Of a stretch of 64,000 nucleotides of DNA, positions 60,215 to 63,566 are shown in pieces; position 1 is the stretch's first letter; each line of letters begins with the position of its first letter. The DNA is from Candidatus Obscuribacterales bacterium (GTDB taxonomy: Bacteria; Cyanobacteriota; Vampirovibrionia; Obscuribacterales; Obscuribacteraceae), in NCBI GenBank assembly GCA_965228855.1, contig CBDDIJ010000003.1, positions 1,216,001 to 1,280,000 on the forward strand. Direction: 5' to 3'. Below the pieces are notes generated by a model that saw only the letters and a list, made by a program, of their open reading frames with translations, was not told the DNA's origin and ran no database searches. Made by a program: the position numbers and the translations under genes.

Positions 60215-63058
60215 ATGATTGAGCTTGAACACGACGCAGAGAGAAGACCGGGCTCCGCTACAGGAGATTCGTCGACCGACAATTCGCAGACCGAAGGTTC
60301 TGAAGACTATTTTGCTGCTGATTGCGCTTCTCCGCAGGATGATAGACCGGATGTTAGTCTTCGCTCAATATTTTTTGATAAACACATTGAAGGCAAACCC
60401 CAGACCGATTCTCCTCAAGTATCAGCGCTTGGAGTTCTTATCGTAATGGGCGGAATTCTCGTACCCGCGCTCACTATCAGTGCCGCCCTCGCTGCGAACG
60501 CTTATAGCGTTTGTGGTGTTTTGTGGCGTCATTGGTTCGAGACGCTAGTACAGTTCGGATTGTTGGTGTCAGTGCCGGCCGGCATCGGTTTTGCCTGGTC
60601 TAAGATCAAAAACAATGATATGCGTCGAGTTCGTCTAATCGGATACGTGATCGGATTGTCGCTAGGCTCCGCACTTTTGACAGCGATAATCACGACTGCG
60701 TCGGTTGTAATGAAATTTCCAACATTGGATCATCAGGGAATCGATCACATTCCAGAAATGTCATATCTCGCTTGCGTATCATGGTTAGCGGTGCTTGCTG
60801 CATCATGTGTTGCTATCCAATTCCGAAGACATTGGCCCACTAAAGGTGCAAAGCGCTCGTCCTCCGTCTACGTTCTGATCGGGGCGGCGCTATCGCTTCT
60901 AGCGCTTGTTGGTTCCGAAGCCAGATCGGCATGTATTCGAATTGCCGAAAAGTTAGTTGTTGCAGGCACATCCGAACAGCAACAAAATGGACTGAATTTC
61001 TTGCGACAGATCGATTGCGAGCGAGACATCAAACTTGATTGCTCTACTGCGCGAGCCTTCGATTTGTCGGGAATGTTTTTGCGCCTGGATAACGAACAGA
61101 ATAAAAAGCTGTACTTCCTCTCTACTGGACAACCTTACCGCTTCGATTTGCTTGATAGAGCTGAATTTTCAGCTTTGCCGGATGAGATGTTGGGGCGAAA
61201 CGTCATTGGCGACAAAGTTGCAAACTTGAGCATGCACAGATCGTTGATTAGCGGCATGCTTCACCCTGAATCTTTGACTTCAACCATTGACTGGACCTTT
61301 GTATTCAAGAATGACGGAGCAGAAGCCAGAGAAGCGCGTGCCGAGATCGGGCTTCCGAAAGATGCGGTGATATCGGAGATGGTGCTCTGGATCAACGGCG
61401 TACCTAAACGTGCCACCATCGCCTCGGCTGAACGAGCGAAAGATGCCTATCAGTGGGTAGTCGGTGGGCGTCGAGATCCGGCGCTGGTTACTGATCTCGG
61501 GAAGGGGCGTGTTCTGGTTCAATGTTATCCGGTTGCCCCACACGCGGAAGTACGTATTAAAATTTCAATGAAGTCTTCAATGAAGCTCGATAAAGCGGGG
61601 GAAGCTGTGGCTAGCCTGCCGACTCTATTGAAGAGCAACTTTGAGGTCGAAGGTGATCATCGTGTTCATCTGCGAGCCGATCGAAAGCTGATGTTGGATT
61701 TAGATAATGTACGTCACGTTGTCGCAAATAATGGATTGCATCAAGTTTCAGGAACGCTTGCATCAGCCAAGCGATCCAGGGATTCGATAGACGTTCGCGT
61801 TCACCGTGATGCAAAAATTACTCCTGTAGCGATCAAGGACCCGCTTGACTCCAGGGGCTATATCGTCCAGCAGTACGTGCCAACGACATCTAATAAACCC
61901 GACCATCTGGTAGTCGTCGTCGATGGATCCTCCGCTATAGCTGCGCACAAGGATGAGATCGTTCGGCAGCTTTCAAAGATTCCGCACACTATTCCAACTT
62001 CCCTCATTGTGGCGTCCGAGCAGTATAAGGACGGCATGCAGTTTCACGAGATAGACGATGCAATCAAAGCGATGAAGCAAGTTAATTTCAAGGGCGGTCA
62101 GGAGAACCTCGGTGCGGTGATCAAAGGCGCTGAACTTGCCGGGGAAACTGAGGGTGGCGCGGTTCTATGGATTCACGGGCCACAACCTGCTTTAGATAAG
62201 GAGCTATATATCATTGCACCGTATCTGGTGAAACCGAAATTCTACGAATTGTCGATTGAAGACAGCGTTACTGATGTCAACGAATTCTTTAAAAATCACC
62301 AGGAAATCGGACCATTCACGGCAGTCGCGAGAAACAGCTCCTTCGAAAAGGATCTCGGACGGTTTCTCCGCAAGTGGCAAGCGGATGGTGTCGACTATAC
62401 GCTCAGATACGCGAGAACCTTTGATAAGCCTGGGGCCCTTGAATCATCGATATATGTTCAGGATGAAATCTCAAGACTGTATGTCGCACAGAGAGTGCGC
62501 GAACTCGTGAACAAAGGCAATCGATGGGATGCAGCTAACCTTGCAGTTTCGTACCAAGTGGTGACACCGGTTACCTCCGCGGTGGTTCTTGAAAATTCTT
62601 CTGACTACGCACGCTTTGGTTTGCACGAGCCCGCAGCAACTGATGGAAGTGATTCCATTCTTGCAAAGACCGCGCCCAAAGACGGTTTCCGTTCCTCTCG
62701 AATCAACACGGTTACTTCCGATTCAAGCGATAGACCTGCAGCTACCGCTAGCGGTGACATGATGAAAGGCTCCGATGCAAGCGCGCCGAGTCTGGTCGGG
62801 GCGACCATGGGAGGTCAGCTTGTATCGGCCTACACCGGGGATGGAACCACACTTCAGGGTGCGACAAATGGAACTATTGCTGCGCAGGGGGCAGATGCAA
62901 CAACGATCATGGGATTAAATACCGCAGGCACCGTGAGAGTTAACAACCTGGCCAACCTGGAAGCATTGCTAAATATCCTTGCGAATTGCTTGCAGGTGAG
63001 TGGTATCGGATTTGGTTTAGTCATATTGACACTTGCATTTATCAAACCGACTCGATGA
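60215..63058 (+). CDS. Multi-pass membrane protein with VIT and vWA-like domains; C-terminus apparently continues in another frame to 63195
   Basis: GGAGG RBS; TM region; EARAEIGLP..LWING..RRDPALV; VVVDGS; VTPVTSAVVLE. Confidence 0.85.
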   Translation: MIELEHDAERRPGSATGDSSTDNSQTEGSEDYFAADCASPQDDRPDVSLRSIFFDKHIEGKPQTDSPQVSALGVLIVMGGILVPALTISAALAANAYSVCGVLWRHWFETLVQFGLLVSVPAGIGFAWSKIKNNDMRRVRLIGYVIGLSLGSALLTAIITTASVVMKFPTLDHQGIDHIPEMSYLACVSWLAVLAASCVAIQFRRHWPTKGAKRSSSVYVLIGAALSLLALVGSEARSACIRIAEKLVVAGTSEQQQNGLNFLRQIDCERDIKLDCSTARAFDLSGMFLRLDNEQNKKLYFLSTGQPYRFDLLDRAEFSALPDEMLGRNVIGDKVANLSMHRSLISGMLHPESLTSTIDWTFVFKNDGAEAREARAEIGLPKDAVISEMVLWINGVPKRATIASAERAKDAYQWVVGGRRDPALVTDLGKGRVLVQCYPVAPHAEVRIKISMKSSMKLDKAGEAVASLPTLLKSNFEVEGDHRVHLRADRKLMLDLDNVRHVVANNGLHQVSGTLASAKRSRDSIDVRVHRDAKITPVAIKDPLDSRGYIVQQYVPTTSNKPDHLVVVVDGSSAIAAHKDEIVRQLSKIPHTIPTSLIVASEQYKDGMQFHEIDDAIKAMKQVNFKGGQENLGAVIKGAELAGETEGGAVLWIHGPQPALDKELYIIAPYLVKPKFYELSIEDSVTDVNEFFKNHQEIGPFTAVARNSSFEKDLGRFLRKWQADGVDYTLRYARTFDKPGALESSIYVQDEISRLYVAQRVRELVNKGNRWDAANLAVSYQVVTPVTSAVVLENSSDYARFGLHEPAATDGSDSILAKTAPKDGFRSSRINTVTSDSSDRPAATASGDMMKGSDASAPSLVGATMGGQLVSAYTGDGTTLQGATNGTIAAQGADATTIMGLNTAGTVRVNNLANLEALLNILANCLQVSGIGFGLVILTLAFIKPTR

Positions 63059-63195
63059 TGCCGTCTCTGGCTTTACGCCTATCACGCTCTTCACGCGTGA
63101 TATTGGGATTGTCGCTTCTCGCATTGGGTCTTGCTACACCTGGATTCCTGAATTACATGGTATCGAGCGCGCGTGATGCGAATCTGTTCAGCTAG
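63055..63195 (+). CDS. Frameshifted tail (or coupled 46-aa ORF) supplying the second helix of a pilin-like hairpin
   Basis: RVILGLSLLALGLATPGFLNYMVSSARDANLFS in the -1 frame; ATGA overlap with upstream stop. Confidence 0.65.
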   Translation: MMPSLALRLSRSSRVILGLSLLALGLATPGFLNYMVSSARDANLFS

Positions 63196-63295
63196 CGTTC
63201 GTCAATGACCGGTTGTTGTTCGTCAGGAGGAGGAGGTGATGCCATGACCGAACTCAATTAACTTCGAGTACTACAGAGAATCAATCAGCGACATG

Positions 63296-63321
63296 AGAAG
63301 GTGACCATCCGGTCACCTTCT
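63296..63321. terminator. Hairpin between convergent genes
   Basis: AGAAGGTGACC-atcc-GGTCACCTTCT, perfect 11-bp stem followed by T-rich bases. Confidence 0.65.
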
Positions 63322-63356
63322 TGATTATTGTATTGCGACTGCGAATTAACGAACGG

Positions 63357-63566
63357 CTACCCACTTTTCTTTTCATGCAAATCTATCATCGCGTCAATTT
63401 CTTCATTGACGCAAATGTGGCATGTCCAGAAACGATTCATGACGGCCCATATGCCGCAGTCTTTTTTATCACAGGTGACGCGATGACATTTGAAACACTC
63501 GCGTCGAGTGGTGGCGTGAAGCTCTTCAAGGCATCGCATGCAATATTTGACTTGATCCGGTTCCAT
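63357..63566 (-). CDS. 69-aa eight-Cys zinc-finger protein, probably leaderless
   Basis: CxxC..CxxC..Cx4C..WxCxxC; TATAAT 6 nt before ATG. Confidence 0.7.
   Translation of the reverse strand: MEPDQVKYCMRCLEELHATTRRECFKCHRVTCDKKDCGIWAVMNRFWTCHICVNEEIDAMIDLHEKKSG

Follow-up and report, generated by a model that had tools for sequence, protein, structure and literature searches.

A VIT-vWA membrane protein of Obscuribacterales ends in a selection-kept copy of a probable pilin, possibly a self-mimicking protease bait

To our knowledge, bacterial VIT-vWA proteins have no agreed function. One such protein, encoded in a window of 64,000 nucleotides (the whole stretch analysed; contig CBDDIJ010000003.1, positions 1,216,001 to 1,280,000) of Candidatus Obscuribacterales bacterium, ends in a copy of a small signal-peptide protein, here called F1, and is the subject of this report. 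The described families nearest to it in layout are the TIGR04477 (XrtN target), TIGR04286 (MSEP-CTERM) and TIGR02921 (PEP-CTERM integral membrane) proteins, which also have N-terminal helices, a VIT domain and an exchangeable C-terminal tag; all three give weak matches over the VIT region, far below cut-off. The F1 tail differs from those tags in being a two-helix copy of a host protein, ~115 residues long, and no sorting enzyme was found adjoining it.

A further likeness is to ITIH4, a bait that traps the protease cleaving it: after cleavage within an exposed, protease-susceptible region, ITIH4 retains the protease via its vWA domain, and an intact MIDAS (an adhesion site dependent on a metal ion) is needed for complex formation (PMC7793589). 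The present protein shares the predicted VIT-vWA fold followed by a long disordered region; it differs in being bacterial, membrane-bound at both ends and degenerate at the MIDAS, and its exposed region copies a specific self protein rather than a generic proline-rich stretch. Bacterial alpha-2-macroglobulins are likewise bait-and-trap proteins in which the bait sequence sets the captured protease (PMC4498604, PMC9918453). Bait cleavage triggers them, and they have been proposed to halt proteases that get into the periplasm (PMC4498604); placing a substrate sequence in the bait of the E. coli macroglobulin led to capture of the matching protease (PMC9918453). The known members are described as broad-spectrum with disordered baits (PMC4498604, PMC9918453), whereas in Obscuribacterales, whose macroglobulins keep the CxEQ motif, many baits copy the organism's own pilus parts. 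The VirB2/TrbC-like pilins and the Patescibacteria pilin arrays (PF04956, PF18895) resemble F1 in three respects: a helical hairpin behind a signal peptide, arrangement in tandem arrays, and minimal VirB4 clusters in the genome. The Patescibacteria arrays average 25% identity (PMC12102498), whereas F1 is near-invariant in its module and varies only in a short N-terminal segment; moreover, F1 reaches no family cut-off and its arrays lie outside any VirB4 cluster. VIT proteins with exchangeable tags, ITIH4 baiting, macroglobulin baits and Patescibacteria pilin arrays are thus already known separately. Self-derived pilus motifs in VIT tails or macroglobulin baits were not found in the literature searched, most subscription papers lying outside it.

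It is proposed here that the tail is quite possibly, short of probably, a bait that mimics a self protein and is meant for proteases attacking the proteins of the pilus. The gene and the parts of its tail are located as follows (positions in the window):
60215..63195, + strand: whole gene, a membrane-bound VIT-vWA protein with an F1 tail, 993 amino acids (aa) after single-base correction (open reading frame, VIT match, ortholog, run contigs)
62852..62974, + strand: copy of the F1 N-segment, LQGATNGT...GLNTAGTVRVNNLANLEALLN, a conserved mimic and proposed bait (36/41 identity, saturated synonymous sites, presence in macroglobulin baits)
62987..63043, + strand: tail helix 1, drifted to a hydrophobic anchor (conservation and hydropathy)
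63097..63153, + strand: tail helix 2 with a conserved PG, preceded by a basic loop (alignment and hydropathy)
63163..63195, + strand: conserved F1 C-end SSARDANLFS and the stop codon (alignment, identity to stand-alone F1)

The copy, its maintenance by protein-level selection and the loss of the F1 helix core are established from comparison with related proteins. The tail of the intact ortholog is identical to stand-alone F1 at 36/41 positions of the N end, 16/50 of the core and 12/17 of the C end. At identical residues, tail and stand-alone share the codon at only 7-8 of 21 positions, and the synonymous sites are thus saturated; the match is therefore kept by protein-level selection and not by recent copying, and recent DNA copying is excluded as the origin of the identity. 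The source genome holds five stand-alone, signal-peptide-bearing copies of F1 (four of them in tandem on contig C5) and a second intact VIT fusion. This bears out the earlier note on this DNA, which had mentioned such stand-alone versions and suggested searching with the tail for them and for other fusions.

The wider set comprised 236 F1 proteins, drawn from the best 120 of 1,044 matches and the best 120 of 638, and divided into 143 stand-alones and 93 fusions; the 93 long carriers are VIT-vWA relatives without exception (93/93). In the stand-alones, the helix core is of fixed length and 80-100% conserved per column, whereas in the fusions it is mostly 10-60% conserved and usually 5-9 residues longer, with both ends kept. 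The median hydropathies of the two helices are 2.01 and 1.97 in the fusions against 1.23 and 1.19 in the stand-alones, and for the second helix the ranges are disjoint (<=1.29 in stand-alones, >=1.48 in fusions). Judged by these sequence properties, the fusion helices are ordinary membrane anchors, and the loss of the F1 helix core argues against assembly into a pilus. The suggestion that the tail is a mature pilin displayed in a filament is consequently not supported, the invariant core having drifted into a longer and more hydrophobic anchor. Its companion, that AAQG mimics a signal-peptidase junction, is rejected: AAQG is a drifted form of a conserved GPQG (GP is found in 121 stand-alones and 68 fusions among the 236 proteins), and the signal-peptidase site of the stand-alones lies ~40 residues upstream of GPQG, with the pattern A-x-A|Q in 131/143. 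Both F1 ends of the tail are predicted to lie on the periplasmic side.

Copying of this kind recurs across the order: four other pilus components are its sources, and VIT linkers and macroglobulin baits its recipients. A second pilin-like module, F2, occurs in this genome as two stand-alones, one VIT fusion and one fusion to another domain; across the order, its stand-alones are 87-100% identical and its fusions 52-66%. F1 and F2 have no profile similarity (hhalign probability 0.2%), and the F2 fusions show the same shift of the helices to the anchor type as the F1 fusions. F2 belongs to a conserved cluster with a VirB4-like ATPase, a VirD4-like ATPase and a relaxase, and is accompanied by a large VirB6-like gene in 8/9 loci and by VirB4 in 6/9, the labels VirB6, VirB8 and PrgI being assigned from size, helices and position with no family match. 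The N-motifs of F1 and F2 are stacked without their helices in further VIT proteins, and the F1 N-motif was also seen upstream of a PEP-CTERM. The C-terminal end of the Flp pilin is carried by some VIT proteins: 3/20 score 44-60, where none of 3,000 genome proteins exceeds 40, and three more beat shuffles at p <0.01, which this genome's clade member did not. One VIT paralog of this genome ends in a PEP-CTERM and adjoins an exosortase; the F1 tail occupies the place that PEP-CTERM has in VIT paralogs encoded by this genome, and the earlier note had put PEP-CTERM at this position in comparable cyanobacterial proteins.

The search with F2 also brought up an alpha-2-macroglobulin: 18 residues of its segment preceding PF00207 are identical. 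A match was present in 38 of 107 genomes, which yielded the macroglobulin set of 30 loci with 29 located baits; the bait was taken as the variable segment just before PF00207, and its status as a cleavable bait is assigned by position under the established domain order. Self motifs are present in 19/29 baits as near-verbatim pieces: the F1 N-segment in 3, the F2 N-segment in 7, the C-terminal tail of the Tad secretin in 6 and CpaB in 9, the F2 and CpaB counts being inflated since these motifs were in the query and the loci were ranked by score. None was found in the 35,057 residues of the macroglobulin flanks or in 226,343 other residues. Restricted to F1 or secretin motifs, which were absent from the query, 9/29 baits remain. 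A motif is present in 26 of 120 database homologs, in each case within the bait, and the CxEQ thioester motif is kept in 25 of these 26; the motif carriers thus combine a self motif in the variable segment before PF00207 with the thioester motif. None of the 16 macroglobulins named as Acidobacteria or Deltaproteobacteria has a motif. In a second macroglobulin clade the secretin tail is found in 22/30 baits, a query-biased and inflated count; the member in this genome has an internal loop of the secretin as well. The donors were identified by Pfam as the Tad secretin (PF00263 and PF13629) and CpaB (PF16976); further donors are the Flp pilin and F2 of the conserved VirB4/VirD4 operon. The string RDxNLF in baits was rejected as a copy of the F1 C-end, most instances being copies of the secretin tail. 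As a separate observation, a secreted protein of the second VirB4 cluster (G000:C2:1991160-1991864; L259:2163-2864) matches a segment in 2/30 baits by short BLAST and is a possible donor.

The part of the VIT protein that precedes the tail comprises the following features:
60422..60913, + strand: five N-terminal helices, aa 70-233, predicted to be transmembrane (from a hydropathy scan of P0184, the intact ortholog)
61274..61567, + strand: VIT domain, PF08487, aa 354-451 (E 3.3e-9)
61922..62188, + strand: remodelled metal-site region of the vWA domain, DGSSA for DxSxS, GGQxN, WIHGPQP (ortholog scan, model, alignment)
62561..62593, + strand: end of the folded ITIH-like ectodomain, VTPVTSAVVLE (model, Foldseek, alignment)
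62594..62851, + strand: linker rich in Ser/Thr/Gly/Ala/Asp, predicted disordered (predicted local distance difference test, pLDDT, <50 over model residues 520-615)

By hydropathy, the intact ortholog has five helices at its N-terminus and two more in the tail. The AlphaFold2 model of the ortholog's last 701 residues shows a confident VIT-vWA body and a terminal hairpin, with ~95 residues at pLDDT <50 after the body, the conserved start of the tail included. The top Foldseek match of the modelled ectodomain is inter-alpha-inhibitor heavy chain 1 (6FPY; E 7.6e-22, 584 columns), and the ectodomain is predicted from this model to fold like an inter-alpha-inhibitor heavy chain (VIT-vWA). The model thereby presents the ITIH4-type arrangement, in which a disordered, exposed region comes after a heavy-chain fold of VIT-vWA type. 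Complex prediction for the ectodomain with the F1 N-segment scored 0.00, which is evidence neither way. The metal face of the vWA domain (61922-62188) deserves a remark of its own: near-invariant Asp, Ser, Gln and His replace the canonical MIDAS, GGQxN and WxHGxQP are near-invariant downstream in the vWA domain of F1-tailed relatives, and the remodelled face may be a metal site of another kind, or may be catalytic.

Under the bait proposal, a protease targeting F1 would cut or bind the membrane-embedded F1 mimic in the tail, and the ectodomain, predicted to be ITIH-like, would then trap or sense it. The outcome of cleavage may be trapping, or else signalling by way of the five N-terminal helices, and the recogniser would be a protease, presumably a foreign one (of a competitor, predator or phage) rather than the host's own. 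More speculatively, and at a somewhat lower confidence than for the tail itself, Obscuribacterales may possess an envelope immune layer of self-mimics, in which ITIH-like membrane sensors and macroglobulins bear exchangeable copies of the host's pilins, secretin and CpaB that act as baits for enemy proteases aimed at pilus machines; the baits would then list the attacked targets as well as unannotated pilins, F1 among them. Such a layer would be a counterpart of the integrated decoys of plant immune receptors, where the enzyme of an attacker is drawn to a host target's copy built into a defence protein. The parallel is an analogy only, since the proteins and the compartment differ and the copies here are short motifs in a bacterial envelope.

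Several points weigh against a bait. The protease, its cleavage site and any complex with it are all hypothetical. The bait region is the most insertion-tolerant part of a macroglobulin, where docking motifs would collect too. The macroglobulin counts come from related genomes, which are not independent, and include the inflated F2, CpaB and second-clade figures given above; in addition, 10/29 and 8/30 baits of the two clades carry none of the tested motifs. In the VIT protein, the tail keeps the full hairpin and the C-end, which would be superfluous in a bait for a soluble protease. The PEP-CTERM-tailed paralogs adjoin an exosortase, and the VIT family can therefore serve a sorting enzyme of the host. 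Finally, the MIDAS is not canonical: the site reads DxSxA here, and DxSxS is complete in only 14/61 F1-tailed proteins. A trap identical to that of ITIH4 is doubtful, because the MIDAS is degenerate and ITIH4 trapping requires an intact one.

The copies might instead be docking tags, short binding motifs that tether VIT proteins and macroglobulins to pilus machines or to a shared chaperone without any cleavage. This is unlikely on balance, though several points favour it: every donor is a part of a pilus machine; the secretin segments are its C-terminal tail and an internal loop, and secretin tails can serve as partner-binding sites; motifs are also found in small proteins that are neither VIT proteins nor macroglobulins (C2:2132830, C3:504129, C3:2587114); and the degenerate MIDAS agrees with it. 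What docking accounts for poorly is that the macroglobulin copies are confined to the bait, with the thioester motif kept, and that a single bait or linker may hold several unrelated motifs, stacked and exchanged between proteins, a pattern more in keeping with an assortment of baits than with a common address. A sorting or processing tag, read by the host's own maturase of F1 in the way exosortase reads PEP-CTERM, so that the VIT protein is cut or transpeptidated, is rated as rather improbable. The tail does occupy the PEP-CTERM position of the paralogs, and a membrane enzyme would account for both ends and the hairpin being kept. Several published attributes of sorting signals also apply: a C-terminal location, several cases per genome, a near-invariant start motif and homologs with another signal (10.1101/2023.06.07.544157). 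Against this stand two helices and a conserved polar end, ARDANLFS, in place of one central helix ending in a basic cluster, and long carriers that are uniformly VIT-vWA relatives rather than varied passengers. A relative of exosortase lies beside 0/16 F1-tailed genes (on short, partly incomplete flanks, other enzyme classes not being screened) compared with 5/6 PEP-tailed ones, and the N-motif also occurs upstream of PEP-CTERM and, without any membrane helix, in baits, where it therefore cannot be sorted. The sorting tag put forward by the earlier note may still apply, but is weakened by the missing exosortase and by the helix-free motifs.

Two further explanations were considered for the tail itself. 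As a minor pilin or pilus anchor, it would co-assemble with F1 and so cap or nucleate a filament, or display the VIT-vWA domain on it; vWA domains are known as pilus adhesins, and the homology extends over the whole module of a conserved multi-copy protein. This is nevertheless very improbable, given a core that is conserved and of fixed length in stand-alones and drifted and longer in fusions, second-helix hydropathies that do not overlap, an equivalent shift in the F2 fusions, and five N-terminal helices that would keep the protein in the membrane. The least credible account, already largely refuted, is a relic of a chance fusion that now serves as a plain two-helix anchor. The free drift of the helix core would suit it; the soluble ends, however, are 88-93% identical despite saturated synonymous sites and two paralogous ectodomains that share 176/450 residues, and the pattern recurs with other donors.

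The bait proposal takes the copied protein to be part of a pilus, and F1 is indeed probably a pilin, its assembly into filaments being presumed. This view is taken because of its layout, its arrays, the other donors being pilus parts and a second VirB4 cluster lacking an evident pilin gene. In layout, F1 shows a cleaved signal peptide pattern followed by a marginally hydrophobic helical hairpin (the stand-alone medians given above). The module is present in 100/100 Obscuribacterales genomes, mostly in several copies, and in 0/201 other genomes of the class. Among 57 F1 loci, a FliB-like (CxxCxxCC) gene occurs in 25 and a ThiF-like gene in 28, typically flanking the array, and variable genes sit between the F1 copies. 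These flanks recur in the order's second family; they may modify F1 or only share synteny with it. The second VirB4 cluster, without an evident pilin gene, is found in 26/26 genomes of the order and in 0/95 others, a range that shared ancestry alone would give as well; F1 may be the pilin of this cluster.

Family searches returned little. Neither stand-alone F1 nor the tail matches at the TrbC/VirB2 family cut-off (PF04956, PF18895), and T4SS_pilin is matched by 1/18 members of the module (E 0.015). Genome scans with PF04956, PF18895, PF13572 and PF12963 did not return the F1 module, only the signal-peptide stretches of two F1 genes matching (E 0.17 and 0.31). The structural model of F1 is a plain two-helix hairpin: Foldseek gave nothing at E 0.001 or better and listed no pilin, which does not exclude one, and in VIA-align several generic hairpins tied, the best at Z 8.6. 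The nearest named families in the ESM Atlas are DUF3852 (0.84) and DUF4134 (0.82), both of which we take to be pilin-like; they serve as leads only. The pilin copy claimed by the earlier note therefore holds as a copy of an exported, probably pilin-like two-helix protein, and is not supported, by family cut-off, as to TrbC/VirB2. A likeness of the F1 N-segment to the N-terminus of L-asparaginase II is at chance level (E 0.96), and the only TrbC above cut-off in the assembly is encoded by contig C4, which its G+C and gene content mark as a chimeric contaminant. That contig (G000:C4, 182 kb) runs at ~28% G+C for 50 kb and then at ~65% with a Trb-type conjugative element, and does not belong in the gene inventory of this genome.

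The open reading frame 60215-63058 encodes 947 aa and ends in ...LAFIKPTR, after which a second frame reads ...RVILGLSLLALGLATPGFLNYMVSSARDANLFS to the stop at 63193-63195. The split of the tail over two frames and its two-helix layout are as first described from the sequence. The break consists of one A missing from a short A-run after 63043:
63043..63046, + strand: single-base assembly loss in the A-run (ortholog comparison, run contigs)
The frameshift is an assembly error, because the run contigs and the intact G007 ortholog carry the extra A. That ortholog (97% identical) is a single open frame with one A more at the break site, and the extra A is present in 4/4 run contigs over 62700-63400, which otherwise show no difference (from at most two samples, possibly the source DNA). 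A genuine frameshift or programmed recoding is ruled out by the same data, and the true product has 993 aa (943+1+49). The family of the VIT protein is placed in Obscuribacterales by database names.

Other loci of the assembly carry related modules. F1 arrays between FliB-like and ThiF-like genes, with varying cargo, are found at G000:C5:978488-986868 (L021) and at loci L033-L088. A signal-peptide protein at G000:C3:3122536-3123378 (L026) combines a diverged F1 hairpin with, after it, a weak match to a superinfection-immunity domain (PF14373, E 0.0025, below cut-off). Single motifs are carried elsewhere too: the F1 N-motif by three proteins (C5:644755-645894, C2:2330702-2333227 and C2:2132830-2133411), of which one is a secreted vWA protein, another a soluble VIT-vWA protein and the third a small protein with two helices, and the secretin tail by a small secreted protein at C3:2587114-2587761. 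An unannotated Cys-rich N-terminal domain, PC..W..M.GD...RFC, appears at G000:C3:504129-504809, C2:183402-184055 and C5:979885-981012; in these three genes it is fused to a full F2 module, fused to an F2-like N-motif, or adjoins an F1 array. VirB4-like clusters with DUF2225 and very large membrane proteins lie at G000:C3:3042918-3065593 (L090, L022), with the F2 pilin-like, VirD4-like and relaxase genes, and at G000:C2:1990026-2007700 (L259), with no evident pilin gene.

Both VIT-vWA proteins and macroglobulins of Obscuribacterales carry selection-kept copies of pilus parts at the position where a cut by a protease would fall. If the copies are baits, the natural targets of bacterial macroglobulins and the role of the VIT proteins would become directly testable, and each bait would name a substrate with which its protease could be fished for. 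Even under docking or sorting, the copies mark short functional motifs of a widespread uncultured order, in its Tad system and in two VirB4 systems on the chromosome, and they single out F1 as a core structural protein that has so far gone unannotated.

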